Below are positions 24,092 to 62,135 of a DNA stretch of 64,000 nucleotides, piece by piece. Each line of letters starts with the position of its first letter. The first letter of the stretch is position 1. This DNA comes from Folioceros fuciformis. Taxonomy: Eukaryota. The notes beneath the pieces were generated by a model, which saw nothing but the letters and a program-made list of their open reading frames with translations, was not told the origin of the DNA and did not search any database. Location: NCBI GenBank assembly GCA_049999805.1, contig JBNGIO010006379.1, positions 189,614 to 253,613 of the forward strand. The letters are read 5' to 3'. Made by a program: the position numbers and the translations under genes.

Positions 24092-25876
24092 CTAGTTCAC
24101 ACCCAGACCACTCATCTGGCTTTCCAAGACGCCGTCTTCTGTATTGTCCTCCGACTCATCTGCATCTATACCTTCAGCATCCTCATCATTCTCTGCTTCC
24201 TCTTCCTCATTCTCGTCCAAGGAGCCAAGCACTGACACTCCCGAGACGCCCTTTGCCAGCTCGTCACGCAGAGCCTCTATACCTGCCTCTGAAATTTGAT
24301 TGCCATCCAAGTTCAGGGACTTGAAATGTTGCTTGTTAGCAACAGCTTGCGCCGCTGCAACCGCTCCGGCCCTTTGAAGAGAGTTCGTGCTGAGATCTAG
24401 CTCCTTGAAATTCTCACTGCCATTGAGCAGGGCCTTGCAGATGATCACTGCTCCCTTATCCTTCAGTTCGTTCTCTGCAAGGTTCAGTCTAATAAGGTGT
24501 CTCTTACTTGAAATACAACTGGCCAGAGAGTTTGCTGACTTGTGCGTGATCTCATTACTGCTGAGTTCCAAGACAGCGAGATTGGGGGCCGTGGAGGCCA
24601 GAGCTTCAGTGATGGCAATGACACCCTCGTCTTCCAAAGCCAGTTCACTTAGGTACGCCTCTCGCAACTCCGCATGAGACCTCAAGGTCTTGGACAGAGC
24701 AAGACCACCTTCCGGACCGAACATGTTATCTCTCAAGTCCAGCTTCAGGAGACTCCTGCCGGACTGTAGAGCTTCGACCAACGCTATCCCACCCTCGATG
24801 CTCAACCTGGTGGAAGAAAATTTGAAGTCTTCGAGGCGGGATGCACCACTCACAAGCTCGGCAAGAATCAAGCCCCCTTCATCACCAGTCATGTTATTGT
24901 GGAAATGGACCTTCCTCAGCTTCTCGTACACCGGGATGAGCTCGCAAATAGCCCTGGCAGCGTGCTCTGAGATTCCATTGTTCATGAAATAAATCTCCTG
25001 CAGAGCCTTCTGCGACTTGAGAAGAGAACCAAAAGCCCGAACCCCTTTCTCCCCCAAAGCATTGTCCGAGACGTTGAGTGACCTAAGCTCACTCCCTACC
25101 AGAGCATCGGAAAACATACCCATGACTGCCAACGCATCGGCTTCCGACTGCCCTGCCACAATATCAGCCAGATTGACATCCACCAGCTGGCCCTTTATGG
25201 CTCCTAGAACTTTAGCAGCTACCTCTCCCGCTGCCCTGTCGAAGCTGAGATTGCTGAAACATATGCTGGAATACCTATTTCCAGGCTCCGTCAAAGGTTT
25301 CAGCACCTCCAGTGCCTGATCTCCTTTCACAAAAGCCCTCTTTCCCCCAGACCCTGCCGCATTGAAAAAGGTAGGGCCCCCTCCACCACTGACCTCCTCC
25401 GCAAATCCGACTCGCCGCACGACAGCCTTTGCCTGCACCTGCGCCTGCCCATTAGACAGAAACTCCGTCTCCGTGCCCCTGTCCACCTGCACAACCACGC
25501 CATTACACTGACCTTCCAATCCGCCCACACCACCAGACTTGGCCACCTCGCCATCCTTCCCCACCACAGGCTTCGACTTGACGGCCTCCAGCATGAGCGA
25601 GCTGGCCCGCTTCGCGTACAGCTGCACGACCGCCGTATCGCTGCTCCCAATCTGCGCAGCTGCTTCTTGCTCCGCGAACGCAAATGCCTCGTTCTCTATC
25701 CTCTTGGCGTGCTCCAGGGCCTCGTCCGGGCTCAGCGCCACATACCTGTCAGTGCCCAGGGAAAATGTGCACAGATTGGTCGACATTCGCTCCACCAAAT
25801 TTGACCGAGTGCTCTCGCTCGGAGGCCAAAGCTTGAAAGCGTGCTCGTGCCCCGCCGCATCCCTTCCCGCCGCCAT
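24092..25876 (-). CDS. RanGAP: Plant Ran GTPase-activating protein (WPP domain + LRRs + acidic tail), intronless CDS
   Basis: FKLWPPSESTR WPP motif, LRRs such as LNVSDNALGEKGVRAFGSLLKSQ and LDLRDNMFG, acidic C-terminus. First ATG at 25876. Confidence 0.95.
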   Translation of the reverse strand: MAAGRDAAGHEHAFKLWPPSESTRSNLVERMSTNLCTFSLGTDRYVALSPDEALEHAKRIENEAFAFAEQEAAAQIGSSDTAVVQLYAKRASSLMLEAVKSKPVVGKDGEVAKSGGVGGLEGQCNGVVVQVDRGTETEFLSNGQAQVQAKAVVRRVGFAEEVSGGGGPTFFNAAGSGGKRAFVKGDQALEVLKPLTEPGNRYSSICFSNLSFDRAAGEVAAKVLGAIKGQLVDVNLADIVAGQSEADALAVMGMFSDALVGSELRSLNVSDNALGEKGVRAFGSLLKSQKALQEIYFMNNGISEHAARAICELIPVYEKLRKVHFHNNMTGDEGGLILAELVSGASRLEDFKFSSTRLSIEGGIALVEALQSGRSLLKLDLRDNMFGPEGGLALSKTLRSHAELREAYLSELALEDEGVIAITEALASTAPNLAVLELSSNEITHKSANSLASCISSKRHLIRLNLAENELKDKGAVIICKALLNGSENFKELDLSTNSLQRAGAVAAAQAVANKQHFKSLNLDGNQISEAGIEALRDELAKGVSGVSVLGSLDENEEEEAENDEDAEGIDADESEDNTEDGVLESQMSGLGVN

Positions 25877-26204: not shown

Positions 26205-27631
26205 ATGGCCTGCCGGATGTCTCATGTTGTGGCCACAACGCAGCAATGCGGGGCCGATCACAGGACGTTGAAATGTGCTCACGTGCAATTGCAACGGAGA
26301 CAGCCGAGGGCCGTCTTGCGAGTGAGCTGTCAACTGTCTCCAGCCGGTTCCGGAGGTGCTGCACATAGTTTGCAGGAAGAGCTGGCGCTGAGATCCGGAG
26401 TCGGAGCTGAGGCACTGGAGCCGGAGCAATCGCCTTCTGCATTCACACCACGGCAAGTGGCTGTTTTTTGGGATTTAGACAATAAGCCTCCCAAGAACAT
26501 ACCGCCTTACGATGCTGCGCTGCATCTGACGAATTTGGCGTCTGGTATGCTCCTGCTGCTGTGAAGGGAAGGGTGGTGTGTTTGTGGATGTTTCTGTTTG
26601 TTGGTAACAGAGTTGTTGGGTGTTGCAGGGTTCGGAGAGGTGGTGGATGTTGTAGCGTATGCGAATCGGCACGCGTTCAGTTTTGTTCCGGAATGGGTGA
26701 GGGAGCAGAGGAGGGACCGGAAGAGGCTTGATCAGCTGGAAGTGAAGGGGTTGGTGCAGGTGGCGGAGCCCTATGTCTGTTCCCTGTGTGGAAGGAAATG
26801 CAGGAACAACTTGCTTTTGAAGAAGCACTTCAAACAGCTGCACGAGCGGGAACGGAATAAGAGATTAAGTCGATTGGACCAATTGAAGGGGAAGAAGCGG
26901 GTCAAGTTTCGGGAGAAACATGCAGATCGGGAGGTTCGGTACAAGGAAGCTGCCCGAGGTATCATCATGCCCAAGGTGGGCTACGGACTGGCAACTGAGC
27001 TCAGGAGGGCTGGTGTTTTTGTGAGAACTGTGCAGGACCAACCGCAGGTGAGCAGTCTCATCCTTTTTCTTTTTGTTGGAGTGGGTACAACGTTCTTCGG
27101 CTGAGTAGTGACGGAACTTGATTGCAGGCTGCAGACATCGCTCTGAAGCGGCACATGCTTCAGTCCTTCAGGCAGGGTGTGAGGTGTATATGCCTCGTGT
27201 CTGATGATTCGGATTTTGGAGACATTCTGAAGATGGCTCGGTATCAGAAGCTGCGGACTGTTGTGGTGGGTGACACGAAAACTTTGAAAAGCTCTTCAGA
27301 CATGTGGTTTTCGTGGGATGATGTATCTTCAGGCCGAGCACGGCTTCAGGCCAATGAAGACTCTGAACAATGGGCTAATGAAGATGCTCTTGCCAAGGAC
27401 CTGCTTGACGATGAGTTTCTAGATGACAGGGATGCAGTCGAGATCAGGCTGAAGGAAAGGTTTGGCAGAACCGATGACTTAAGCTACAGTGTGCCTATTA
27501 GGGTCTCCCAAGTTTCAGCATTTTCTGATGAAGACGCTCAAGATGCCAGTCCATATTCTTGGGAAACAGCATCTGATTCGGATGATGATTTATACTACTC
27601 TTCGGATGAGATTTCAGACGAAGAGGAATGA
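26205..27631 (+). CDS. NYN-domain protein with an inserted C2H2 zinc finger, 3 exons
   Basis: VAVFWDLDNKPP, AYANRHAF, YVCSLCGRKC...LKKHFKQLHERE, PKVGYGLATELRRAGVFVRTV and LVSDDSDF (NYN acidic motifs). Confidence 0.85.
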
Positions 27632-29483: not shown

Positions 29484-30888
29484 CGCTGCGGTGCTGGTCA
29501 CATGAGCTTCATCATGCTATTTCAATCCAGGATGTTTTCAACAAGCCATGAGGTATGTTTGAAGTACCACGGCCCAAGAGTGACCACCGACCGCAGCGAG
29601 TTCATTTACTTGTTAAAGTCGTTCAGGTGGACCTGTGGGTACTTTACCATCGACTTTCATCGGTACACACACGCACATCCCACTTTACTCCAAAAAACTA
29701 GAGAGAACCGCCTCTACTTGAAGCACATCTACCAGCATCCAGGGGGTCCTCCTTCCGAAGCCCTAGAACTAAGTCGCATACCAGTCCCAGAAAGCGAATG
29801 CGTTACAGGCAGTTCAAATTTCAATGCTTGCAAGTCAGACAGCAGCCCAACGCGCTCTCGTTAAGGTTTGTGCGACCCTCAGGATCTACACGATAGATCA
29901 CCACCTTGTGTTCCTCCCATACTTCAGTCCCCGTAAAAGTGACTCAGCACGGATGCAGGCCCGAACGACGGCCCAAACCGTGGCCACTACTGCTCCTCTT
30001 CCTGTGCTACCCGGCATTCAGAGGGTCTGATCATTTCTTCTGTCCTTTGGCGTTGCCGCAGCCCGTGATACTTCCCCGTTGTAGCTGAGATTCCCCGTGC
30101 CCAGGGGCCCGAACTTCTCAACCACCTGCCTGCAGCATCCTGCATAGGACGTAGCTGTCGCTCTCGGGACTTATGATCAGGCTTTGGCTGTACGCTTCCT
30201 CCATCCACCCACACCGGAAGTATGTCGTTGCACTCATTGATGGCATTCAGGCCGAGAGAGTTGATACTTCGCTAGAACTGACCTTGACATCCGCATACAT
30301 CAACAATCCCTTCATGGCAGCATGCCCCATCCTTGACTTCTGATTTCCGTATCCACTGGCAGATTCAGACTGTGCCTGCAAGGACTTCAGGTTAGAATCG
30401 TTTCCGACATACCCTGCCTTCCTCCCAGCTAGAGTAGTGTCCCGGGAGAGGGAATAGGCACCAGCTTGGTGCCACCTAGGTGCCAATTCTAAGTCACATC
30501 TGGATCCGATTTTCCTCAGGTGACCTAGATGATGACGATCCGACCCGCCTCTGGCCCCTATATGGCTTTGCCAACCGGCTTGGGTCGACTCCTCCCTATC
30601 TGGTTATCGAGATCTTGCAAGAAGACATGGGTTTCCACCTTCACCAAGGCTGTCACTTTGTCCGTGAGCAGTTCCTGGGCCACGTGTCTCATGGTGAATT
30701 TTACTACTAAGTGACGCGGCAAAACCTGTCCTTCAGGGACAGATTTGATGCTCACGTCCCCGACAAGAGCCCATGACCACTTCGTTGGACAGCGCCACGC
30801 CAAAAGCATGGCTCTCTTGGATGCCTGAGTGTGAAGGTAGCCACTTTCGCATCACACGGAAAACTAGGCTCATCAACCACTTTTCTCG

Positions 30889-33849
30889 TCAGGGTCGACC
30901 CTTACAGCTGCAACAACCATTAGCAAATCGATGCACACGGTACCCATCCCTTACAACAATGTTCCTCTGCTCCAGCCTTGACATGATCTCTGTAGAACTG
31001 TGGCAGTCACTGCACATGCGTAGATTCTTCGTTACCACCAAAGGTGTCCCACTTGGAGTGTTCAAGAGACCAAACGCCAGAGCTAGCTTCTCAGCATGCC
31101 CACAAAGCGTTTCTTCCTTTTCCTTCTCAGACAGTGGCTTCAAAACCAACTTTGTGTGAGGTACGTGGCCCCCTTCTTGTTTCAGATGTGCATTCATGCT
31201 CTCAACCTTTGGCGCGATATCATCTCTTCTTTCCCCCACCGAAAATGTGTGCACCTGCTTCTTCACCTCAATAGTCGCCACTGCAGGTTTCTTGTTAGCT
31301 CCTGCAACCAATCTCTGTGTTTCGATCCTGTCTACATCGCTCCACATCCCTGCATCTGCATAGGCATTGGCCATGAGAACATACGCAGACGACGCCCTTT
31401 CCGGGTCCAGCCTAACAATCCTTTTGAAACACCACATCGCCTTCTCTATATCCCCGTGGCTTTTACAGGCATTCAACAAAGCCGTCAAGCCCACGACATT
31501 ACGTTGATCCTCACATGATAAGAGCATCTTCTCTGCCTCATCTAAGTGGCCTGCACGCCCAAGAAGATCAATCATGCAGTTGTAATGCTCAATAGTAGGT
31601 TTCATGCCATGCTGTTCAGCCATGGAATCAAAATGCTTGCGCCCCTCGTGAACCAGTCCCTCATGACTACACGCTACTAAAAGGCAAGTAAAAGTTGCAT
31701 CATCAGGCTGAACACCGGCAGCTAACATCTCTTCAAAGCAAGCTAGGGCTCTGCGGGCATCGTCACAAGTGCCATACCCAGATATCAGGGCATTCCATGT
31801 CACCACACTCCTTGTGTTCATGCTGTCAAAAACTTGCCGCGCACCTTTCAAATCACCACATTTTGCATACATGTCCACCATACAGGTGCCGAGCACTACA
31901 TTATCCTGCAATCCTCTTTTGACAATCTGTGAGTGCAGCTCCCTTCCCATCTGTAAGGCACCAGTGCTTGCACAAGCCTTGAGGAGGCAAGCAAAAGTAA
32001 AATGGTCAGCCAGTATCATCCCGTCTTCCTCAATTTGTCCATACAAAACAAGCGCTTCCTGGCCTAGCCCTTGCTGTGCATACCCAGATATCAGAGCATT
32101 CCATGTCGCCACATCCTTTGTGGCCATGCTGTCAACAACCTGACGTGCCGCTTCCAGTTCACCACATTTTGCATACATGTCTACCAGGCAGGTGCCCACC
32201 ACGACATCCTTCGACAGTCCTCTTTCAACAATCTGTGAGTGCAGCTGCCTGCCCTTCTGTAAGGCACGAGCACTTGCACACGCCTTCAGAAGGCCAGCAA
32301 AAGTAATACGATTACCCAGAATCATACCCTCTTCCTCCATTTTTTCATACACAAGAAGCGCCTCATCTCCAAGTCCTTGCTGTGCATACCCAGTTATCAG
32401 AGCATTCCATGTCACCAAATCCTTTGAGCCCAAGCTTTCAAAAACTCGTCGTGCAGCTTCCAGTTCACCACATTTTGCATACATGTCCACCAGACAGTTG
32501 CCCACAACTACGCTGTGCAGCAGTCCTCTTTTTACAATCTGTGAGTGCAGCTGCCTGCCCTTTTGTAAGGCACCAGTGCTGGCGCACGCCTTCAGAAGAC
32601 AAGAAAAAGTAAAATGGTCGGCCGAATGGACGCCGTCTTGCTCCATTTGTTCGTACAAAACAAGCGCCTCCTGGTCCAGCCCTTGCTGTGCATACCCAGA
32701 TATCAGGGCATTCCACATCACCACGTCCTTTCTGGCCACGCTGTCAAAAACCTGGCGTGCTTCTTTCAGTTCACCACATTTTGCATACATATCCACCAGG
32801 CAGGTGCCAAGAAACAAGTCAGGAGGGACGCCACTGTGCAATATATCACAGTGCACCTGCCTGCCAGATTCCAAGTCGACAGCCAGTGCACAAGCTTTAA
32901 GGGCAGCTCCCAACACGTGAGCATCCACCTTCACTCTTGATCTTCGCATCTCATGGTACAGTTGTACAGCTTCTTTAGCTTTCCCATGCTTCGTGTATGC
33001 GGAGATTATGGAAGACCACATGAAGGCATCTGGCCTACCCACCCTGTTAAGCACATCCATGGCCTCCTCTAACCTACCTCCACAAGCATACATCCGCAAG
33101 ATGTGATTTCCCAGGTATGCATTCGACTCGTACCCAAGTTTGACAGTGAGATCATGAACTCGTCGACCCAGGACCAAATCCTTCTTAGCTGTACACAGTT
33201 TGAGCACAGTGTAAAACAGAGACTGAGAAACAACAAAGCCAGTCTGCGCCAACGATTCCAGGGCTCCGACGGCCTCAGAAAGCTTCCCCTGCTCACATAA
33301 CATGTTCACAGTTCTGGCCGTCACGATGCCGATCCTGGATCCTTCACGCCCCACATGTTGAGGATTATCCGAAGAGCTTGACTTGGAAGGAGAGGCACCA
33401 TGACCCATCTGCAGGTCCAAGGAATTGAGTTTCTCATCAGCCCAATCGGGCTTACACAAGTTGTTTAACCACAGGACCTCGCCGGATTTCTGTCGCCGAA
33501 AGGCAGGTGAGTGGGAACTCTTCTTGTCTTGTCTGCTGTCCCACCGCATGGCAGGGTCGGGTACATATTGTTGCCACAAGTGCTCCTGATCCTGGCGATG
33601 ACCATCTTCGGAAAGCCCGTCTCCACCAACACATTCCATCGGAAGTGGAAGGGCTGGGCTCCTTACACTGCTGCACCGGGAAGCTTTGTTCGCTAAGAAT
33701 TGACTTCCTAAGATGCGGTGAGCGGGAGCTCCTTGAAGAATCCCTGTACAAACGCCAGTTTGTTGGGTCGAAAACAGGTCTGATTGCCATAGTGTGCCCA
33801 TCGTTCGGCACCGCTGTGGGAAGATGGCCTTAACAAGAGCCTGTACCAC
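30889..33849 (-). CDS. PLS-class PPR protein with E1-E2 and a DYW:KP (GRP-ending) deaminase-like domain; putative U-to-C organellar RNA editing factor
   Basis: Single 986-codon frame (first ATG 33801) with about 17-18 P/L/S motifs, then P2-L2-S2-E1-E2, KKPAVATIEV, HAEKLA, NLRMCSDCH and HRFANGCCSCKGRP*. Confidence 0.95.
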   Translation of the reverse strand: MVQALVKAIFPQRCRTMGTLWQSDLFSTQQTGVCTGILQGAPAHRILGSQFLANKASRCSSVRSPALPLPMECVGGDGLSEDGHRQDQEHLWQQYVPDPAMRWDSRQDKKSSHSPAFRRQKSGEVLWLNNLCKPDWADEKLNSLDLQMGHGASPSKSSSSDNPQHVGREGSRIGIVTARTVNMLCEQGKLSEAVGALESLAQTGFVVSQSLFYTVLKLCTAKKDLVLGRRVHDLTVKLGYESNAYLGNHILRMYACGGRLEEAMDVLNRVGRPDAFMWSSIISAYTKHGKAKEAVQLYHEMRRSRVKVDAHVLGAALKACALAVDLESGRQVHCDILHSGVPPDLFLGTCLVDMYAKCGELKEARQVFDSVARKDVVMWNALISGYAQQGLDQEALVLYEQMEQDGVHSADHFTFSCLLKACASTGALQKGRQLHSQIVKRGLLHSVVVGNCLVDMYAKCGELEAARRVFESLGSKDLVTWNALITGYAQQGLGDEALLVYEKMEEEGMILGNRITFAGLLKACASARALQKGRQLHSQIVERGLSKDVVVGTCLVDMYAKCGELEAARQVVDSMATKDVATWNALISGYAQQGLGQEALVLYGQIEEDGMILADHFTFACLLKACASTGALQMGRELHSQIVKRGLQDNVVLGTCMVDMYAKCGDLKGARQVFDSMNTRSVVTWNALISGYGTCDDARRALACFEEMLAAGVQPDDATFTCLLVACSHEGLVHEGRKHFDSMAEQHGMKPTIEHYNCMIDLLGRAGHLDEAEKMLLSCEDQRNVVGLTALLNACKSHGDIEKAMWCFKRIVRLDPERASSAYVLMANAYADAGMWSDVDRIETQRLVAGANKKPAVATIEVKKQVHTFSVGERRDDIAPKVESMNAHLKQEGGHVPHTKLVLKPLSEKEKEETLCGHAEKLALAFGLLNTPSGTPLVVTKNLRMCSDCHSSTEIMSRLEQRNIVVRDGYRVHRFANGCCSCKGRP

Positions 33850-34797: not shown

Positions 34798-35377
34798 CAA
34801 AAAGGAAGGTACTCAAATGGGCTTAAGTGATCCGATTCACATCAAAAGGAAGGTACTCCAATACGCTTAAGTGATATGATTCATGTCAAAAGAAAGGCAC
34901 TCCAAAGGGCCTTAGTGATGGGTTCTCATTCTCCAATGGGCTTAAGTGATCTAATTCATGTCAAAAGGAAGGTACTCCAAAGGGCCTTAGTGATCGGTTC
35001 TCATTCTCCAATGGGCTTAAGTGATCTAATTCATGTCAAAAGGAAGGTACTCCACAGGGCCTTAGTAATGGGTTCTCATTCTCCAATGGGCTTAAGTGAT
35101 CTAATTCATGTCAAAAAGAAGGTACTCCACAGGGCCTTAGTGATGGGTTCAAAAGGAAGGTACTCCAGAGGCCTTAGTGATGGGTTCAAAAGGAGGGTAC
35201 TCCAGAGGGCCTTAGTGATGGGTTCAAAAGGAAGGTACTCCAGAGGGCCTTAGTGATGGGTTCAAAAGGAGGGTACTCCCGAGGGCCTTAGTGATGGGTT
35301 CAAAAGGAGGGTACTCCAGAGGGCCTTAGTGATGGGTTCAAAAGGAGGGTACTCCACAGGGCCTTAGTGATGGGTTC
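34798..35377. repeat. Composite minisatellite: 72-bp units grading into 38-bp units
   Basis: tcaaaaggaaggtactcc...gggccttagtgat...ctccaatgggcttaagtgatctaattcatg (72-bp period), then aaaaggaaggtactccagagggccttagtgatgggttc (~38-bp period). Confidence 0.92.
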
Positions 35378-35815
35378 TGATTCTCGTGTTGGAAAGCTAT
35401 CGCATCCTGGCGAGTTCACTTTCGAACACGAGACAGTAAAGCAATCACATAGGTTAAGCTTACTTTGGTTCGATCTCACAACCGTCTTGCACACAAGACT
35501 ATGTGCAAACCACTAAGCCATTGGAGTTTGTTGAAACCTTCAAGGTTTATACAATGAATTAATATCCATATTTTAAACAACTTTTCATATGATGTGAACC
35601 ACATTCCACAAATTAAAAATAATAATCTAGGTCATCTTCATCACTCTTCTATTGTTTTAACCTTAATGACATTCATTAGATGGCCATTTAGCAAATGGCT
35701 ATCTCTATTTGCCCCTTCTCAAGTAGGCCTTGTAATCTATGAATTACAACAAAATGGTTAACCCATGAATAAAATTCTTTATAGATCTCCAATCAATCAA
35801 TTCAAGTGCTATTGG

Positions 35816-35928
35816 TAGTCATTAGGTTTCATCAGGTTAGTCATTAGGTTTCATTGGGTTAGTGATTAGGTTTCATCGGGTTAGTCATTAGGTTTCATCG
35901 GGTTAGTCATTAGGTTTCATTGGGTTAG
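35816..35928. repeat. 22-bp tandem repeat, about 5 copies
   Basis: ttagtcattaggtttcat(c/t)ggg repeated. Confidence 0.88.
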
Positions 35929-36358
35929 CTTTAGTGTCCTTATCTAAGGGTAGATGGTTTTCCATCGTGTTTTTTTTAATAAATAAAACTTAAGTTTTGG
36001 TTTTATAGATCTCCAATCTCGACATTCAAACTTGACTTCTTTAAAAGAGAAATGAAAACAGTATAATTTGTTAACTCTAATGTCAAAGCTTTAAAAGCTA
36101 GGAGCTTGGATGAGGTAAACACCTTAATTTCTTATGAAACTTCCTACACCTTCTGATGAATTGCCCCTGTAGAAGGGGCTCAAAACGTATTGAATATTAT
36201 AGAATAATTGTGTTAATTGGTTTATCTCGTGAAAAGGGTGTTTGCTAAGAGCTTGTGTCAAAAGTACTCCTGTGGGTTTAGTTAGGTAACCTGATTCTAG
36301 TTAGCCAGGGCGAGGCGAGGGCAAGGGCATCGGCACGGCGTGGTCCATCATTTTCCTC

Positions 36359-37800
36359 GCAAGGTCGACCCTTACAGCTGCAACAACCATTAGCAAATCG
36401 ATGCACATGGTACCCATCCCTTACAACAATGGTCCTCTGCTCCAGCCTTGACATGATCTCCGTTGCGCTGTGGCAGTCACTGCACATGCGTAGATTGTTC
36501 GTTACCACCAAAGGTGTCCCACTTGGAGTGTTCAAGAAACTGAACGCCAGAGCTAGCTTCTCAGCATGCCCACGAAGAGTTTCTTCCTTTTCCTTCTCAG
36601 ACACTGGCTTCACAACCAACTCTGTGTGAGGTACGTGGNNNNNNNNNNNNNNNNNNNNNNNNNNNNNNNNNNNNNNNNNNNNNNNNNNNNNNNNNNNNNN
36701 NNNNNNNNNNNNNNNNNNNNNNNNNNNNNNNNNNNNNNCATGTCCACCAGACAGTTGCCCACAACTACCCTGTGCAGCAGTCCTCTTTCCACAATCTGTG
36801 AGTGCAGCTGCCTGCCCTTTTGTAAGGCACCAGCGCTGGCGCACACCTTCAGAAGACAAGAAAAAGTAAAATGGTCAGCCAAAATGACGCCATCTTGCTC
36901 CATTTGTTCATACAAAACAAGCGCCTCCTGGTCCAGCCCTTGCTGTGCGTACCCAGATATCAGGGCATTCCACATCACCACGTCCTTTCTGCCCACCCTG
37001 TCCAAAACCTGGCGTGCTTCTTTCAGTTCACCACATTTGGTTTGCCCACTCTGGTGATCACATCCATGGCCTCCTCTACCCTCCCTCTGCAAGCATACAT
37101 GCGCAAGATATGATTTCCCAGGTATCCATTCGACTCGTACCCAAGTTTGACAGTGAGATCATGAACCCGTCGACCCAGAACGAAATCCTTCTTTGCTGTG
37201 CACAGTTTGAGCACAGTAAAACAGACACTGAGAAACAACAAAGCCTGTCTGCGCCAACGATTCCAGGACTCCGACGGCCTCAGAAAGCTTCCCCTGCTCA
37301 CATAACATGTTCACAGGTTTAGGCGTCACGATCCCGATTTTTGATCCTTCACGCCCCACACGCTGAGGATGATCCAAAGAGCTCAACTTGGAAGGAGAGG
37401 CACCATGATCCATGTGCATGTCCAAGGAATTGAGCTGCCCATCAGCCCAATCGGGCTTCCCCACATTGTTTAACCACAGGACCTTGCCGGATTTCTTGCT
37501 CCGGAAGTGAGCTGAGCGGGAGCTGTTCTCGTCTTGTCCGTTGACGCACCACCCGGCAGGCTCCAGTAAAGATTGTTACCACAAGTGCTCATGCTCCTGT
37601 ATTCGAACGTCGTTGGCAACTCGGTGCCCACCAACACATTTCCTCGGAAGTGGAAACGTTGGGCTCCTTACATTCCTACACCAGGATGCTTTGGTTGGCA
37701 GGGGCTGACTCCCTGAGATGTGGTGAGCGGAAGCTCCATGTAGAATTCCTGTACACAAACCAAATTTGGGTCCGCAGCAGGTCTGGTTGCCATGAGTGTA
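36359..37800 (-). pseudogene. Pseudogenised tandem duplicate of the DYW:KP/GRP PPR gene (spans N gap 36639-36738)
   Basis: Near-identical to 30889-33800, with a premature TAA at 37576-37578, a 2-bp deletion near 37216, a ~250-bp internal deletion near 37035, and the stop after GRP changed to TGC. Confidence 0.85.
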
Positions 37801-39399
37801 ACGAGAGACAGACTGTAACAAGATTCGGAGGTGCCATCCATCGCCACAGCAACCTCAATGACACAAAGATTTAGAGGCCGTGGTACACCACAAGGACTTT
37901 CGAAACAAGGATTTTCAAAACTTCCCACGATCTGGCAGTCGAACTTTCCATGTCACATGGAATGACGTCATACATTGGGTTNNNNNNNNNNGTTCAGGGT
38001 CGGGTTAGGGGTAAATTTACAATGGGTTTAGGGTCGGTTAGACATTTTCAGGAGGTAGACTAGCACTCATCCGGAGGTAGCCTAGTACTCATGGAGAGGT
38101 AGACTAAGTGCTCGTCGGGAGTATTAGACTAGTAGTAGTCGCACTCGAAATTGTTCAGGTCAAACACTTAGTAGTAGTCGCACCGGAAATTGTTCAGGTC
38201 AAAGTTATTTTTTTTAGTAGAAGCAGGGGGTAGAGCAATTTCATAATTATTTAATAAAAGAGATTAATATATTATTAAAATGGATCAAATGAAAATCATT
38301 AGATTTTTTTGTCATGAAGCCATGCATTAAAGTNNNNNNNNNNNNNNNNNNNNNNNNNNNNNNNNNNNNNNNNNNNNNNNNNNNNNNNNNNNNNNNNNNN
38401 NNNNNNNNNNNNNNNNNNNNNNNNNNNNNNNNNAAATTTACTTATTGTATTTAACTAATAATTTTTTTTAAATAGACTCAGTAAGTTTTTTTAATAAATT
38501 TCATGTAAAATAATCCATCCCAACTAAATGGACCGATTATGTACTATAATAGATTACGTCTAAATGTCTATATCTTGTAAGTCATATAGCTTAAATCTAC
38601 TACATCTTCAAATTTGTTTTGTACCTTTAAATTTATGTTAGTTCGACTTCATTGACATTTCAAATATGCTCTATGACTAACTACTATTTGTAATTAAGTT
38701 GTTTGAAATTTGCTGGTGGTTTCAATTCATACATACTTCAAATGCAAGCATGATGAACTACTATTTATAACTTAATTATTTAAAATTTCATATAAGTACG
38801 AATTTATCGTTACTTGAAATGCACTATATGATCAACTATTCGTCTACAATTGCTCACCCTTCATAATTTTTATCGTAATATTTCAAAACTACTAACATCA
38901 AAATCAAGCTCACCATAAACATCTTATTTAAATACTCCATTAAAGTAGCAATGTGAGTGGAAGCGAACATTATTTAGTTCTTTTGAAGCCAAGTTCTTGT
39001 AAATGTGTGTCCTAACAATTGATTGTGCACAAGACTATGGATTTGTGTAAGATATGGTGAAGCAAACATAGAGCAGGTACGACCCCATCTCTACTATGCA
39101 CAAGCCTTCCACACATGGACAAGGAACACGATCAATACATTGCCACCAGCAATTTGTGGCCCACGTTTTAGCACCATGCTTTAGGCTATGACTTCTTCTC
39201 ATCTCCTCACACATATTATCGTTTTGGCACAAAACATCAACAAAAATTTAATTCAATTTATAATGATACACCTAATATGCATAATTCCACAGATACAATA
39301 CAAATTCAAGCCTTACTAAAACACAAAGATACATCGATATTCATCCCTTAATTAAAAAGATCCTAAAAATACTTTAGCTTTCTACTTATCCACAACAAT

Positions 39400-42300
39400 T
39401 GACCAATTTGTCCTAGCTAATTACGAGGAAGACATTACATTCCCAGAAAGAGAAAATTAGAAAATAGCAATTAAATTAGAATTAGATTACTTAAAAGCCA
39501 ATAAAACTTGGACCTTTATTAACTTATAGGATCTAATTGGACATTTTAAATTAAATTGAATGCAAATGACAGCGTAGGAAGGTATAAGACTAGATTAGTG
39601 GCCAAGGGTTACTCACAGCAACATAGATTCGACTATGATAAGATAAATATTAGGCCAGTGCATGAGATCACCTTACTTAGAACTCTTGTAGCACCAGCAT
39701 TTCATCACAACTATGAACTGATGGACTATGAACTCATGCACTTTGACATGAAAACCGCCTTCCTCTATGATGACCTTCAATGTACTATATATCTTATTGC
39801 AACTATGTACTTATGCAACTTGACATAAAAATCGGGTTACCATACCACATATGTGGAGATAGTGTCTTATCACAACTATGAATTTATATAACTTGACATA
39901 AAAACCGCCATCCTCTACAATGACCTCCAACTTACGTCGCATTGCAACTATGCACTTGTGCAACTTGACGTAACTCTAGAGCATCTCATCATAACTATGA
40001 ACTTTTTATTGGTAGAAAATAGGTCGGATTATGACAGCTTGCGCCATTGGAGGGAGTAACAACTATGAACTAATGCAACTTGACATAAAAAAACAAATGC
40101 AACTTGACATAAAAACCGTCACTTGCCATAGATATGGAAATAACGTCTAATCACAACTATGAACTTATGCAACTTGACATAAAAAATAAATGCGACTTGA
40201 CATAAAAACCGTCACTTACTATTAGCATAGATATGGAGATAGCATCTAATTGCAACTATGAATTTATACAACTTGACATAATACCAAAGCATCTCATTAT
40301 AACTATTAACTTATGTAGCTTGGCATAAAACCGCCTTCTTCTACGGTGACTTGCAACGGACCATCCTTTATATTTATATTGACGTACAACGTATTATATT
40401 CATGGAGATAGGACCTGCAACGTACCATATATGTGGAGATAGCATCTAATTATGATTATGATTATGAACGCAACGTACCATATATGTGGAGATAGCATCT
40501 AATTATGATTATGATTATGAACTCATACAACTTAACATAAAAACCGTCTTCCTCTACATTGACATGTATAAAAACCATCTTCCTCTACATTGACATGCAA
40601 CGTACCATAACATCGAGATAGCGTCTGATCACGATTGTGAATGTATGCAACTTGACATGAAAATTGGTTTCCTATACTTGGAGATGGCGATAAATCATGA
40701 CTATAACCTTATGTGACTTGACATGAAAATCGTCTTTCTATACATGGAGATAACATCTTATCACGACTATGAGCTTCAGTGACTCAACATGAAAACCGCC
40801 TTCCCATACATGGGGATAGCGTCCAATCACGACTATGAACTTATGTGACTTGACATGAAACCCATTTTCCTTTACATGGAGAAAGTGTCTAATCACAACT
40901 ATGAGCTTATGTGACTCAACATGAAAACTATGAGCTTATGTGANNNNNNNNNNGTGACTCAACATGAAAACTATGAGCTTATGTGACTCAACATGAAAAC
41001 CACCGGATAGCGTCTAATCACGACTATGAACTTTTGTGACTTGACATGAAACCCATTTTCCTATACATGGAGATAGCGTTTAATCACAATTATCAACTTA
41101 TGTGACTTCACATGAAAACCACCGTCCTCTACATGTCATCGTACCATATATATGGAGATAACGTCTCATTATCATTATGAACTTATGTAGCTTGACATAA
41201 AAATTGTCTTTCTCTTTAATAACCTACAACGTATTATATGTACGGAGATAACATCTCGTTGCCACTATGAACTTATACATCTTGACATAAAAACTGCCTT
41301 CCTCTATAATGACCTCCAACGTACCATATATATTAAGATAGTGTCTCAATACCATTGTGAACTTATACAGTTTTACATAAAAATTACCCTATATATATGG
41401 AGATACTTGAAGAAATAAAGGTTGACAAAAGATTATACTACATTTGCTTATTATTAAAAGCACTTCATGGATTAAAACAAAGTGCTATGGAGTGGTATGT
41501 TAAACTAGATGAAACCCTAGAGACATTAGGATTTACTAAGCTAGAATCTGATAACATCTATATGAATAGATCAAAAGACTACTTCATTCTACTTGTTATA
41601 AATGTAGATAACATAGTACTCATATCCAACTTCAAGCCTATGCTATGAGATACGGGGTCAATGCTTTCAAAACATTTTGCCAGGACCACATCTAGGGAAC
41701 TATCCAATTGCTTAGGAATTCAAATAGTTAGACATAAGTAATCTAGAAGCACATTAATACATTAATCAAAATATATTCATGAGGTTCTAGCTAAGTATAA
41801 TATGTTTGACTCTAAAGTTGTATCTACACAAATGCAGGTTAACCTCAAGCTCACTAAACCGTATGAAAACTCAAGTGAAAGTGCCTAATCCAATGAGTTG
41901 GTAGCCTTATGTATTAAATGGTTTGCATGAAGCCGACCTCCCTTTTTTAGGAGGAGCTCTATCTTAGTTCTTGTATCCTAGCTGACACAACATAACTAAT
42001 AGACCATCAAGTCAATCTTCAAATATCTCAAATCCACATCTAATATTGGACTTTTATATCAATCATCCACTAAGCGAGGTGGGCCTCTCCAACTCCAAGC
42101 ATTTAGTGATGCTAATTGAAAGCCTCTCCAACTCTAAGGATTCATTGATTGCCATCAAGCCTGGTAATTGGAAGGCCATAAGCTTGGTAATTGGAAGGCC
42201 ATAAGCTTGATAATTGGAAGGCCATAAGCTTGGTAACTGAAAGCCCATCAAACCAATCTTCAAATAAGTCAGATCCACATCCAATGTTGGACTTTTATAT

Positions 42301-43891: not shown

Positions 43892-46800
43892 ATGCACCGT
43901 GGGCAGCTTGGTGGAGCTCTGGACATGGACGCTTCAAGGAGTACCGAGGCTGAGGAGAAGATGAGGGAACTGGAGGCTGCAGCTCTGAAGTCCCTTCACT
44001 CCAAGGAGCTCATGGTCTACAATCGTGACGGGACTTGTACCTGCCCCTTCCGTTCCAGCGAGAGGAAGACCCATCTGTACAAGCACCTCGAGTTCTGCTC
44101 CCACGCCGAGAATCTCATGAAGGACAGGGAGACCGGAGACCAGCACAACGCGCTCCTTACCTCCCTGGAGCGGGAGCTGATGCGGCATTTGGAGGATGCT
44201 GCTCCCCGGATTTTCAAGCTCCTGCGGGATGAGCTGAGGCAGCGGGCGGAGATCATGGCCCCCAGGGTGTTGACGGTTGTGCAGCCTGCACCCAAGCGCG
44301 TGCGTCCCGAGCACCGGGTGGTGCATCCCTGGGCAGGGATTGTTCACAATGTCAACACCCTGGAGAGAAACATGCGGAGAATGCTCCCCGAAAACTTGAA
44401 GCTTAGGGACCAATTCGCGCATTTCCAGCCTCAGTGCGTTAAGACGTTCTGGGAGTACGAAGGGGTGCAGGGAGTGTCCGTCCTCGTGTTCGGGCAGGAC
44501 ATGAAGGCGTATGCGAATGGCAGGTCGTTTGAGGAGAGCTTCCAGGCCGTGCAACGGGGCCGGACTGACTGGGAGCGGTGTACGGCGGCCCGCCAGAAGA
44601 TGACGGATCTCTTCGGCTGGATGGCTCAGGAAGACGACTACTACGAGCCTGGGCAGGCGGGGCAGTTTCTCCGGGAGATGCATAAACTCACCACGATGCA
44701 TGACGTAGTGGAGGAGCAGACGAAGGACAGGCAGGGGCTGGTCAAGAAGAGTGAGGTGGCGGAGCTGGTGGACCCTCTGAAGAAGGGGCTGCCTAAGCCG
44801 TCCAGAGCGAAAACTGAGAAATTCAGCCTCGGTAACAAGGGGGTGCAGGCTTGGGAGAAGGCTAAGGTGACGACTCATTTTCAGAAACAGCTGCCGGAGG
44901 AGGAGACTCGACAAGGTGAGTGCATCTCGTCATGTTTGCGACTTGTCGTCTGATGGGTCGATGGCAGGGTGGGCAGTGACGACACGAGGTTGTTTTTTTG
45001 TTTTTGTGGCAGTGCGCTTCGAAACGATCAAGGCTGCGCCGCTGCGGGTCCCGGCCAATCGCGACCTCAAGGTGGTGTACCCGTGGGTGGGACTCATCTA
45101 CAATGCACCGACTCTTGACCCGGATGGCAGGCGGACCAGCCCCGGGCGCGGAGGGGTGAGGGAGCAGTTTGAGGAGTTCGATCCCCAGCAGGTTCAAGTG
45201 TTCTGGGCTGTTGACGGGCCAATGGGGGTCGCGGCTATCACCTTTAAGCCAGGTGCGAAGGGGTATGAGGATTGTCGACTGTTTAACAGAAGTTTTGTTC
45301 GGAAACATCAGGGAAGGCAGAATTGGCTTGAGAACAAGGGGACGTATCGGCAGGGGAGGGACCTTTATGGCTGGATGGCCGGTGAAGAAGACTACAATGA
45401 TGAAGGGAGAGTCGGGGAGTTTTTGCGGAAGAGTTATCATTCGATCACATTGAACCAGCTGGTGGACAAGGAAATGATGTCTGGCGACCTGTTGGAGAAG
45501 CAGCTGCTTGAAATCATCCAGGAACAAATTAGGCAGTTGCCGGAAAGGGCACACACGAACAAGAAAGCGGACCAGGGATTGCAACTGCAAGTACAAGGTT
45601 TGGGGCCTCTCAGCTGGCTTTTTGTCATCGTTTCCATGTTCCCTGCCTCCGTTGCCCACGGTGAAGTGATCTGTCACAGGGAACGAAACACTGAGAGCGG
45701 ATTCTAAACGAGAGACGAGGAAACGGGCTCAGGAATTGGATGCACAATTGGCATCCCTGGTGGCGCGCTATTGGAAAATGAGCACCAATGACACCCAGAA
45801 TGAAGGAGAAAGGAGGCAGCTCGAACTCAAAATACCAGAGGTACCGGTGAAGCTTGCCCTTTTTCTTGTCCTTCAAGCAATGAGGTGAATCTTTACATTT
45901 CTTTCTCTTAGTGCCGACGAGCCGAGGAGGGGAGAGGAACTGTTTCTCCACTAACGTCTCAGGCGTGGTTTGGACAGAATGAGATCCTGCTACAAATGGT
46001 CGCCCAGGAATGGACCCGAGTTCGAGACAGGGTCCGCAAAAAGCACCTAAGTCCGATAGAGAAGTTCGAGGTAACTTACATGACGTTATCACAAACTGCA
46101 GATTCTTGTGGCTTGCGTGCACAAGGTTTCTATAGTGACCTGTGAGGGAATGTTACCACGAGAAATTGCAGAACGAGCTGAAGAGGTACCTGGAGAAGGA
46201 AATTCATGATCAGCAATAGGACCGGATTCCTGCAAAGCAGCAAAAGATGGTGATGGAACGACGATAGTACGTACTGGACCCAGAGACGATAGGAACACAG
46301 AGACGGAATGTTGCAGGCACGGAGCAAGCGACAGTTACTGGGAAAATCTATGAGATGGAGGAGAACGTTCAAGGAACCTGATTGATATCGTTTACCACTT
46401 GGCTGTGTCTCATCGACGTCCCCCGTGGTTGGTCCTCTCCATCGGGGGCGTCGAATGCCACACAGGCCATATCTGTTGACTTCAAATAAATTGTTTGTTT
46501 GTCGTTTGTCCCATCGACTGGAGGTGTCCTTGGATGTGAGTCCCGGTTTCTGCTTCTCGGGCGACGCCCCTGGTCGATGTGCGGTGGAGGTGTCCTTGGA
46601 TGTGAGTCCCGGTTTCTGCTTCTCGGGCGACGCCCCTGGTCGATGTGCGGTGGTTAGATGCAACAGAGGCCCAGGACGAGGACCAGCTCCGTAACCCATT
46701 CCTGGGTGACCATGGATCAGCTCTTTGAATAAGGCCCGCACCCAGAATTTTGAATGTAGAACTGTAGCTGTGCAGAATGAATTCTGAACATCATGTAACC

Positions 46801-47443: not shown

Positions 47444-48832
47444 TCACACAGACCTGGCCCTAAACGTCAAGTAGCTATACAGAACGGTCAGCTCCCGCTG
47501 AAAGGTTCGTGATGCTTGAAGCTCCGGCAGGTAGTGCATCAACGAATTGTTCAGCTCCTTGTCGTGATAAAGTCCCAGCCTGATTATTTCCCGATCGTAA
47601 ACTGTTGCCGCTTCCTGTGCTGTTGTCCATTGGAACCTCTGGATCTTTGGCATGGTGGTGAGTGGCATATTTCTGTTCGGAATGGCGTAGTATCGGCCTG
47701 CTACGTCCAAATTGTCAACAAACACATGAGCTTCATACTTGATGTCGGGGCACCTTAGATCGGGTAGTTGATGTTTGGTCTTGCACCGTTTTCTGATGTA
47801 CACACCGTGTGGCAGCCTGCCCCTGTATAGATGACGAGGCACGAATCCGCGCCCGGGCTGCGCTTCCCTCCTGACGTAGTGAAGCACCTCCCGCCAATCC
47901 GTAAGAGCCACCCATTCCGGTTGCTGCAACCGCTCCAAGTACACCTGTAAATGCTCAGGCGCTGTAAAATTCAGGTTCACTCGAGATCTCGAATCCAACC
48001 TCAACCCGCTTAGGTACAGCTTGAGCTGCACTAGGTCCCAGAACACCGCTGCTATTGTTGCACTATGAAAAGTTGCCAGAAAAATTTGCGAGGGATTCTT
48101 CCTGCGAGTCCGCACGTTCCGATTGTGAGACACCGACACCTGCACTTCGTACCTCTCATTCCCTTTATGCCATCGCACTCCGTAATAGTTCTCGCTTTCA
48201 GGTTCCTCTATGGCGCTCACGGTGTCCTGGCCATCCGCCTCTTTTTCGCCGTCAACTTCTGCCTGGTTAGCAACCTGTTCCTGCTCAGCAACCTCCTGCT
48301 GCTCATCAACCGCTTCCCGGTGATCAACCTCTTTCTGGTGACCAACCTCTTCCTGGTGACCAACCCCTTCCTGCTTCCCACTACTCGAGCACTCATAACA
48401 AGTCCTCGCTCTCTTGCTTTTCCACGGTATCTTCTTGGACGCGACCTTGAAATGTTGCACTGCTCTTTGCAGATCCTCCATAGTTGGCGGCACTGGCGGA
48501 GCTCTTTCTCCCTTGACAGTCATGATTGCGTCCACGACGTCCTTCATCGTCAGGTAAATTGAGCTCAGAAAATCACCGAGTTTGAAGAGCCGCCATGGCA
48601 ACTGTGGAGTGCCACTGGAGTTTGTGCTTGTGCTGCCCTCCTGTCTGTTAGCATGTGAGAATGTGTCAAGCAAATAATTATTTTGCATGAAGAACTCCAT
48701 CCTTTCATCCACCCATCGCTTGGGGATCAAGTCATGAGCATCCGCTTCAGGTCTCTGAGCAAAGTCCTCTGGCCCACAATCCATCAGACTTAAGCCAGCA
48801 TGTAGAGTACGGTCCCAAGTTTCACAATTCAA
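47444..48832 (-). CDS. Divergent protein with two AP2-like DNA-binding domains (long uninterrupted frame; start uncertain, first ATG 48784)
   Basis: AP2-like 1: YYGVRWHKGNERYEVQV...QIFLATFHSATIAAVFWD...VNLNF. AP2-like 2: HGVYIRK...KYEAHV...WTTAQEAATVYDREII...ELNN. Confidence 0.65.
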   Translation of the reverse strand: MNCETWDRTLHAGLSLMDCGPEDFAQRPEADAHDLIPKRWVDERMEFFMQNNYLLDTFSHANRQEGSTSTNSSGTPQLPWRLFKLGDFLSSIYLTMKDVVDAIMTVKGERAPPVPPTMEDLQRAVQHFKVASKKIPWKSKRARTCYECSSSGKQEGVGHQEEVGHQKEVDHREAVDEQQEVAEQEQVANQAEVDGEKEADGQDTVSAIEEPESENYYGVRWHKGNERYEVQVSVSHNRNVRTRRKNPSQIFLATFHSATIAAVFWDLVQLKLYLSGLRLDSRSRVNLNFTAPEHLQVYLERLQQPEWVALTDWREVLHYVRREAQPGRGFVPRHLYRGRLPHGVYIRKRCKTKHQLPDLRCPDIKYEAHVFVDNLDVAGRYYAIPNRNMPLTTMPKIQRFQWTTAQEAATVYDREIIRLGLYHDKELNNSLMHYLPELQASRTFQRELTVLYSYLTFRARSV

Positions 48833-60388: not shown

Positions 60389-62135
60389 GGCGGATTCTTG
60401 AAGCTTGCTCCGAGCTTGGAGGAAGTCGAGGAACAAGACGTCGACACGAGCTGATACTGAGACGTCTCCGATGCCGGAAAGAGCACTTGAAGTGGAGACT
60501 GCAGCAGCACGACTGCAACACCGGAGACAAGAGGAGACGAGAGTCGCGAATGCGAGAATGTGAGCTTTCCACAACAAGCTTGTTTGCTGTGTGTGCAGAT
60601 ATTCGGCAACGAAGGCAGCCATGGTTTTATGTGCCCTCCTCCTGGCCTCCAGCCCTCGTCCCTCCATCCACCCTTCCAAGGTCGTTGTTGACGCTGTTGA
60701 CTAGTCGCAGCCACGAAATGGGCACGAGGTTCTCGCTAGCCGCCAAGCGAAGTACAGGAAGCACATGGCTCAGATACATACATACTTGGGGCGTCTTGCC
60801 CTCTACTTGAGGTACAGTATATACTATCTACCTATCCATAGTATCCGTACTGTCAAAGCTTCGCCTCCTGGACCTCTTTTTGTCTTTTAGCCGGGTTCTT
60901 TCACATATTAAAATGAAAATACAGTATCCACTTGTTTCCCGATACATGCACAAGTACTGCTCCCGTACATGATGCCTGTCACGTGCATGGCAAATTGGCG
61001 AGATCGTCAAAGTTACATACTGTACTTAAAATTATGAAACATGTACCGCTACATTAGGTAGGTATTCATGAGATTCTTGCCCCACTTTGCAAGCTCGTTG
61101 AATAAACATGTGCAAAACGTTGTTGGCTGAGATAGGGACTGGAGACCTACCACGAGCTCGTAAGGCAGCCAAGTATCAGCCATCGTCGCCAACGTAGGCC
61201 ACACGGCTACATGCGCTTCACAAGCTCTCGGCATGTGGGCGGATGCGCTGGACGATGCGATCGCTGTGATAGCTGGATTCAGACCTTGACTGAGGCTGCC
61301 GTAGGGCGTGAGGCTTCCGAGGGATGGCATTCCGGCCTGGGAGGAAGGAAATTGATGGGCGCAGGCAAATGTGACTTGCTGGGGGACGAGCAGCTGGGGA
61401 AGGGGAGGNNNNNNNNNNNNNNNNNNNNNNNNNNNNNNNNNNNNNNNNNNNNNNNNNNNNNNNNNNNNNNNNNNNNNNNNNNNNNNNNNNNNNNNNNNNN
61501 NNNNNNNNCAGCTGGGGAAGGGGAGGTAGGGGACTCGGAGAGCGATTCTCTCATACACAATGTGGGAAAACTGCGACAAGAACACGCAATTTATTGCAAT
61601 TACAGAAGCCCTTGTTTGCACTCTATCTTACATTCTGAAGTGAGGTGGAGTAGCAGCGATGGTACAGAAGAGGACCTGTGCCGTGCTACCTACTCAATTC
61701 TACAAAGGCTTCAAGCCATGATACATAATCCGGCATGTATATGAGCAAGTCTTGCGAAAGCACAAGTTTGAGATATCTACCCTCGCGTGATTGATCAGGA
61801 ATGAAGAAACACGGCGAACCAAGAATTCCAAAATGTTCCTCACGGCCCCACAGGGCACAGCACCTGCTTGAGGGTCACAGCAGGCCTGGAGCGCATGGTG
61901 GGAAGAGGATGCATTTGGTCCACGAAATGTTCGCCTGGTGTAGGAGCGCCATCGAGTTCAATCCGACGCAACCAAAGGCCAGCGCAGGCAGTGCAGACGT
62001 CAGCCTTCACACATCCATCCAATGTCGTCCGTGGTTCGTGCAGCCGGGCGCGGCTGAAGAAGTTTAGGGAGTTTCCAAGATCCGAACTCGCCAACTCTTA
62101 CGAGAATTGGCGCCTCGCCAATTCTCCCTCTTCCC

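Follow-up and report, generated by a model that had tools for sequence, protein, structure and literature searches.

Proteins of the pentatricopeptide repeat (PPR) family with a DYW domain of the KP type (DYW:KP) are defined by a KP pair, variable C-termini and an Ala or Cys instead of Ser (PMC11845758), and they are also marked by a deletion of 3-4 residues in the region of the PG box (PMC11332814). The deletion represents the loss of xHP, and KP domains are 132-133 amino acids (aa) in length (PMC11845758, PMC11332814, PMC9478123). The class is linked in the literature to lineages with U-to-C editing, and hornworts are described as carrying two KP variants, DRH and GRP, named for their last three residues (PMC9478123). 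The GRP subgroup of hornwort PPR-DYW:KP proteins goes back to Gerke et al. 2020 (cited in PMC9478123); in these proteins the K103 of PG-type domains, a Lys that pairs with the Asp of DYW in the PG domains, is replaced by Glu (PMC9478123). Two GRP-based consensus designs, KP2 and KP3, yielded 26% and 22% U-to-C conversion in E. coli and showed no C-to-U activity (PMC9478123). In this report, we describe a gene at 30889-33801, minus strand, of a 64,000-nucleotide window from Folioceros fuciformis (assembly GCA_049999805.1, contig JBNGIO010006379.1, positions 189,614 to 253,613 of the forward strand) whose product, P0001, we assign to the DYW:KP class and the GRP subgroup. A first-pass annotation of the window had already tied DYW:KP and GRP variants to U-to-C lineages and to synthetic proteins that convert U to C, in agreement with PMC9478123.

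The gene is a single uninterrupted open reading frame (ORF) of 970 codons with a TGA stop and the C-terminal end ...CCSCKGRP, as determined by translation and a codon check. We consider it probable that this intact, intronless gene is nuclear and that its product, a PPR-DYW:KP protein of the GRP subgroup, edits organellar RNA at specific sites. Relatives of P0001 in protein databases include P0002, P0008, P0014 and P0092. Pfam identified PPR families in P0001 with E-values from 3e-88 to 1e-42, the E_motif PF20431 at residues 782-845 (E 1.6e-11) and DYW_deaminase PF14432 at residues 878-968 (E 6.1e-33, far above chance). The best solved relative is the synthetic PPR-DYW protein 9kfx, to which residues 360-966 were aligned with an E-value of 5.9e-190, and the alignment to this synthetic PLS protein guided the segmentation of P0001 into PPR motifs of 31-36 aa. 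The resulting tandem array of alternating P, L and S motifs followed by E1 and E2 places P0001 in the PLS class. Residues 1-68 show no conservation with the relatives, for which it begins at about residue 66-72. The main features of the gene are as follows.

30889..33801, minus strand: intronless complete coding sequence of the PLS-class PPR protein with a DYW:KP domain, P0001 (open frame; Pfam; collinear with P0002).
33598..33801, minus strand: residues 1-68, N-terminal extension, a presumed organelle-targeting presequence (counted from the first ATG of the ORF).
33409..33597, minus strand: residues 69-131, PDF-type N-terminal motif (conserved in P0002, P0008, P0014 and P0092; profile search).
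31498..33330, minus strand: residues 158-768, PPR array of 18 motifs, five P1-L1-S1 triplets followed by P2-L2-S2 (segmentation; Pfam).
31294..31497, minus strand: E1 (residues 769-802) and E2 (residues 803-836) (Pfam PF20431 E_motif; alignment to 9kfx).
30892..31290, minus strand: residues 838-970, DYW:KP deaminase-like domain of 133 aa, GRP subgroup (Pfam, profiles, tree, model).

The segment 30889-31300, singled out by the first-pass annotation as a non-canonical deaminase domain, extends over the entire DYW:KP domain together with its stop codon and three E2 residues. Its signature residues are listed below.

31282..31290, minus strand: KPA, the KP signature in place of PG at the start of the domain, KKPAVATIEV (sequence).
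31090..31098, minus strand: H902-A903-E904, catalytic zinc His, Ala for the PG-type Ser, and catalytic Glu (sequence; alignment).
31027..31029, minus strand: K925, equivalent to Lys88 in DYW:KP numbering and to K915 of OTP86, within TKNLRM; the proposed nucleophile and nitrogen donor (alignment; literature).
31000..31014, minus strand: C930-S-D-C933-H934, in which CxxC provides two catalytic zinc ligands and H934 is the first structural-zinc ligand (alignment to OTP86).
30904..30933, minus strand: H957, C964 and C966, the remaining structural-zinc ligands (aligned to OTP86 residues).
30892..30900, minus strand: C-terminal GRP replacing DYW (sequence; stop codon at 30889-30891).

The departures from C-to-U editors that had been noticed in the first reading, namely the KP box, HAE, a shortened segment past FxVG without HP and the KGRP end, were all found in the protein. 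HMMER alignments to both 9kfx and 7o4e place a 4-residue gap in the query directly past FSVGERR, at the HP-containing stretch of those PG-type domains. The domain measures 133 aa from the KP dipeptide to the end, and P0001 has Lys and Met at KP positions 88 and 92; each hallmark that published work gives for KP domains (KP dipeptide, HxE with Ala, deletion of 3-4 aa, 133 aa, non-DYW end, Lys88 and Met92) is thus present. In OTP86, the catalytic zinc is held by H892, C920 and C923, E894 is catalytic and is touched by K915 in the inactive state, and the structural zinc is held by H924, H947, C954 and C956 (PMC7611903). All nine equivalents in P0001 (H902, E904, K925, C930, C933, H934, H957, C964 and C966) aligned to their OTP86 counterparts and are kept, in line with the HxE...CxxC core (HAE, CSDCH) described in the first-pass annotation. 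Judged from this alignment, H902, C930 and C933 would hold the catalytic zinc together with Glu904, and H934, H957, C964 and C966 would hold the structural zinc. We rejected the idea that a zinc ligand is lost along with the HP stretch; in OTP86 the structural-zinc ligands sit elsewhere, and all are kept. In an alignment of 31 KP-type sequences, the H, the E, the K, CxxCH, the second H and CxC are invariant, and the Ala of HAE is nearly so.

We assigned the domain to its class with sequences from a search with the domain region, which recovered 56 proteins from 298 candidates. With the query added, the 57 sequences comprise 31 of the HAE/KP type and 26 of the HSE/PG type, the HAE/HSE residue serving as the label. 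The top 30 matches to the DYW region are all KP-type, the best of them 74% identical; named KP-type matches came only from Adiantum ferns (50-53% identity in the domain), and those from angiosperms and Selaginella are PG-type. The query scored 223.5 bits on a KP profile built from 30 sequences and 145.9 bits on a PG profile built from 24, a gap of 77.6 bits. A maximum-likelihood tree of 56 domains, from which P0056 was left out for its long unrelated extension past the DYW-like region, splits KP from PG with 100/99 support and places the query inside a clade of five GRP-ending sequences with 100/97 support. This clade adjoins a ten-member group in which all sequences but one end in DRH. Four residues past CxxCH, at the K103 position of PG-type domains, P0001 carries a Glu; the equivalent position reads E, E, E, T and Q in the five GRP sequences and K in nearly all others of the tree set. 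Together, the profile scores, a comparison that the first-pass annotation had proposed, and the tree support the assignment to the DYW:KP class and its GRP subgroup, and not to DYW:PG. With the GRP variant described from hornworts (PMC9478123), a hornwort is the most likely source among non-seed land plants.

The predicted fold is in keeping with this assignment. An AlphaFold model of residues 801-970, built with the 31-sequence KP alignment, has a mean predicted local distance difference test score (pLDDT) of 83.9 and a predicted template modeling score (pTM) of 0.76, with one weak loop at residues 883-890. With the model as a query, Foldseek returned 9kfx_A (E 1.6e-16, query TM-score, TMq, 0.75), 7o4e_B (target TM-score, TMt, 0.83), 7o4f and DYW1 (7w86). 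The OTP86 structures in both states were matched with TMt of 0.75-0.83, and bacterial and other cytidine deaminases were matched at far weaker scores. On the predicted model, the domain appears as a cytidine-deaminase fold interrupted by a gating-domain insertion.

If P0001 works as the published models for its class would have it, the N-terminal presequence would take the protein into the plastid or mitochondrion, as judged by homology, where the 18 PPR motifs with E1 and E2 would bind about 20 nucleotides of RNA immediately 5' of the target, one motif per base, and the 133-aa DYW:KP domain would act on the uridine at position 0. In the PPR code, the residues at position 5 and at the last position of P and S motifs specify the base (ND = U, NN = C or U, TD or SD = G), and the S2 motif is aligned to position -4. 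With the L-motif positions left open, this code predicts the target 5'-U G n G U n U Y n G U n R U n Y-3' at positions -19 to -4. The placement of E1 at position -3 in PMC9478123 is consistent with S2 at -4.

According to the Schiff-base model in which Lys88 is the nitrogen donor (2024-2025; PMC11332814, PMC11845758), K925 would attack C4 of uracil to form a Schiff base, and hydrolysis assisted by zinc and glutamate would free a cytidine bearing the nitrogen of the lysine. The description of the amino donor as poorly defined in the first-pass annotation is partly outdated by this model. Hydrolysis would leave an allysine on the enzyme, unless an unknown carrier restores the lysine (PMC11332814). 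Replacement of Lys88 in synthetic KP proteins is reported to abolish U-to-C activity and to unmask C-to-U activity (PMC11845758).

Several observations weigh against reading P0001 as a working U-to-C editor, and they are set out here with the explanations that they favor. The editing role of P0001, its direction and its turnover are attributed by homology, through analogy with designed members of the class. The activity of natural KP proteins is described as unknown in a 2025 paper (PMC11845758), and we found no characterized native KP editor in the open-access literature, including reviews of 2025-2026. According to PMC11332814, synthetic KP enzymes stall in bacteria as covalent RNA-protein crosslinks and release no free C, and in vitro they gave neither U-to-C conversion nor free C. 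The direction of the reaction is not readable from the sequence. Lys88 is common to the KP and PG types, as is apparent from a search with the domain in a representative library of 1.84 billion proteins (E up to 0.001; 2,480 matches). Among the best 150 matches, which were inspected, 145 have a recognizable HxE...CxxCH (117 HSE, 15 HAE, 12 HCE and 1 HQE) and 144 of these 145 carry Lys88, so that Lys88 was rejected as a KP marker; since 117 of the 145 are PG-type, the residue is necessary but not diagnostic of KP.

The likeliest of the rival explanations, which we still regard as unlikely, is that P0001 is a recently duplicated copy that is idle, decaying or RNA-binding only, an open frame with no editing role. 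The closest full-length relative, P0002, is collinear, has the same architecture and is 57% identical over 905 residues, but 7 of the 11 P/S specificity pairs differ between the two proteins. P0002 was rejected as a functional orthologue on these differences. The relatives retrieved include no orthologue predicted to bind the same target, which leaves no sign of conserved specificity. The array itself contains a repeat that coincides with its three central triplets.

31773..32808, no strand assigned: internal tandem periodicity of 306 bp over the three central P1-L1-S1 triplets, 3.4 copies with 81% matches (TRF).

Triplets 3-5 of P0001 share 69-73% mutual protein identity, compared with 26-46% for pairs that include triplet 1 or 2, and the equivalent triplets of P0002 are 47-61% identical. 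The likeness of the central triplets suggests a recent internal duplication or homogenization. In addition, a tandem paralogue lies 2.5 kb upstream of the main gene at 36349-37799, minus strand, with three DNA blocks that are 83-95% identical to it. The C-terminal 92 residues of the paralogue are 89% identical and likewise end in KGRP, with Lys88 changed to Asn; its upstream, N-terminal part changes frame and is broken by an in-frame stop. About 245 bp of the main gene have no counterpart in the paralogue, and a 100-N assembly gap (36639-36738) takes the place of the central array. Judging from these changes, the paralogue is probably a pseudogene and possibly in part an assembly artefact. The homogenized triplets and the degraded paralogue indicate that the locus is in a birth-and-death regime, in which an open frame alone is no proof of function, and the Asp of the PDF triad in the N-terminal motif is also lost in P0001. 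Against decay stand the 970 codons free of any stop or frameshift, the retention of all catalytic and zinc residues that are invariant in the KP family and the confident domain model. The specificity residues differ between the otherwise alike triplets, in keeping with a functional recognition code carried by a conserved scaffold.

The spacer between the two PPR copies contains satellite-like short tandem repeats at 34800-35385 and 35816-35928, with periods of 38, 44, 75 and 150 bp and of 22 bp. The window has five N runs, at 36639-36738 (100), 37982-37991 (10), 38334-38433 (100), 40944-40953 (10) and 61409-61508 (100), three of which are in or just upstream of the paralogue region. We also mapped four runs (X1, X3, X4 and X5, from three coded organisms; X3 is RNA by guess only) to the locus as contigs at 85% likeness. 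Between 3,560 and 42,751 contigs per run fell on the PPR part of the gene (window positions 30834-33758), mostly at 90-95% identity or lower, and exact matches, by contigs of organism A, were confined to the unique ends (30600-30951, and 33384-33834 or 34100). The thousands of similar contigs point to very large families of similar PPR genes in the mapped organisms, which also accounts for the breaks of assemblies inside PPR genes of this kind.

Another explanation, that P0001 is catalytically active as a C-to-U or dual-direction editor and not as a dedicated U-to-C editor, appears to us improbable. It draws on the synthetic KP6, which is reported to edit in both directions in human cells and from C to U in vitro, with single substitutions switching its direction (PMC11845758, PMC11332814). 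All the residues for hydrolytic deamination are present in P0001, which also has G64 and V113, and the substitutions E64G and L113V raised C-to-U editing in KP6 (PMC11845758). However, G64 and V113 are typical of KP and not diagnostic, because they were chosen as the natural-KP consensus (PMC11845758). P0001 also has V119, which favors U-to-C editing in KP6 (PMC11845758), and the Lys88 whose loss yields C-to-U activity is intact. The GRP-based designs KP2 and KP3, with their U-to-C conversion unaccompanied by C-to-U in E. coli (PMC9478123), likewise speak against this explanation. An ordinary DYW:PG cytidine deaminase with chance substitutions, for which one could cite the 44% identity with the synthetic PG-type domain of 9kfx and the 145.9 bits on the PG profile, is already refuted by the signature residues, alignments, profile scores and tree and has next to no probability, given that the linked KP traits all co-occur and the query gains 77.6 bits on the KP profile and nests in the KP (100/99) and GRP (100/97) clades, on profile and tree tests that are not fully independent because the sets were labelled by HAE/HSE and the KP sequences are also the closest relatives overall.

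Upstream of the PPR array, residues 69-131 of P0001 contain a motif that is common to P0002, P0008, P0014 and P0092, a PG-type Sphagnum protein. A profile of the motif found 103 proteins among 1,019 candidates, all from the longer proteins, and most of the matches are PLS-type PPR proteins of Sphagnum, Diphasiastrum, Calypogeia and Adiantum (mosses, liverwort, lycophytes and ferns). A DYW-type motif was detected in 33 of the 104 motif proteins that were rescanned, 5 of the 104 being seeds. The profile also matches angiosperm proteins named single-stranded DNA binding protein (SSB) with E-values of 3e-18 and 1e-13, and one SSB-named match carries the SSB domain PF00436 with two C-terminal copies of the motif. 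Of the 118 copies of the motif, 99 have the triad Pro-Asp-Phe, which reads PAF in P0001. There was no match among shorter proteins, no usable atlas match and no Pfam family at E up to 10. In OSB proteins, the PDF motif is about 50 aa in length and is reported to be sufficient for binding single-stranded DNA (PMC6963530), and the shared profile supports homology of residues 69-131 with this motif. Unlike the OSB proteins, P0001 has a single N-terminal copy ahead of a PPR array, has no OB fold and has Ala in place of the Asp.

A PDF-PPR fusion was not found described in the open-access literature; the sole paper with both terms is PMC6963530, in whose accessible text the motif occurs only in OSB proteins, and PPR is not mentioned in a 2026 study of the OSB family. 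The synthetic KP designs are all without a PDF-type motif. It is conceivable, though we would call it a long shot, that the PDF motif serves native PPR editing factors as a functional module for binding single-stranded nucleic acid, fused in P0001 to a GRP-type DYW:KP enzyme. It might then aid substrate handling or release of the lysine-linked intermediate, the point at which the consensus enzymes are stuck as crosslinks.

The comparison with described systems places P0001 closest to the GRP subgroup and to the KP2 and KP3 designs, with which it shares the KP box, HAE, the shortened PG box, the length of 133 aa, the GRP end, the Glu at the K103 position and the architecture (P1-L1-S1)n-P2-L2-S2-E1-E2-DYW:KP, in addition to its place in one clade with GRP-ending sequences. 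It differs from the designs in being a natural single gene with five P1-L1-S1 triplets instead of three, and in having a PDF-type motif and a presequence, both of which the designs are without. Even its best relative in the database is only 74% identical in the domain and 57% identical overall. The hornwort DRH and the fern and lycophyte DYW:KP proteins, on which KP1 and KP4-KP6 are based, share the KP box, HAE or HCE, the deletion and Lys88, but they retain the terminal-triplet Asp and a Lys at the K103 position and form separate groups in the tree. With the DYW:PG editors (OTP86, 7o4e/7o4f; DYW1, 7w86; 9kfx), P0001 shares the predicted fold with its gating-domain insertion, the zinc sites, the Glu, the active-site Lys and the PPR-E1-E2 arrangement, whereas the PG, HSE, xHP and DYW end of those hydrolytic C-to-U editors differ from P0001 at every signature position. 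Nothing in the catalytic domain of P0001 deviates from the pattern of its family, which has been known since 2020 and of which it is a typical representative. DYW:KP proteins have been tabulated over 364 Archaeplastida genomes, 22 of them from hornworts, and four chromosome-level hornwort genomes are listed with 1,583-2,308 PPR genes each (PMC13386178), so that one further member is unsurprising.

Elsewhere in the window, an ORF at 24092-25876 on the minus strand encodes a WPP domain with leucine-rich repeats, a RanGAP-like architecture, and an ORF at 27155-27631 on the plus strand has a weak NYN-domain match below the Pfam cut-off. Two adjacent ORFs on the plus strand, at 43892-44953 and 44961-45707, encode XS domains in tandem. 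For the ORF at 47444-48784 on the minus strand, no Pfam family was found.

For enzymatic U-to-C conversion, which would complete the set of programmable RNA base editors, no candidates other than DYW:KP proteins are known. With the activity of natural KP proteins not demonstrated according to the 2025 paper (PMC11845758), any intact native gene is a possible test object, and the value of the present gene is that of one more candidate among many hornwort GRP-type genes, not of a discovery. The PDF-type motif on PPR editing factors may merit separate attention: were it to aid substrate handling or release as a working module, a U-to-C editor with turnover would have to be sought among native PDF-PPR-DYW:KP proteins and not among the consensus designs.

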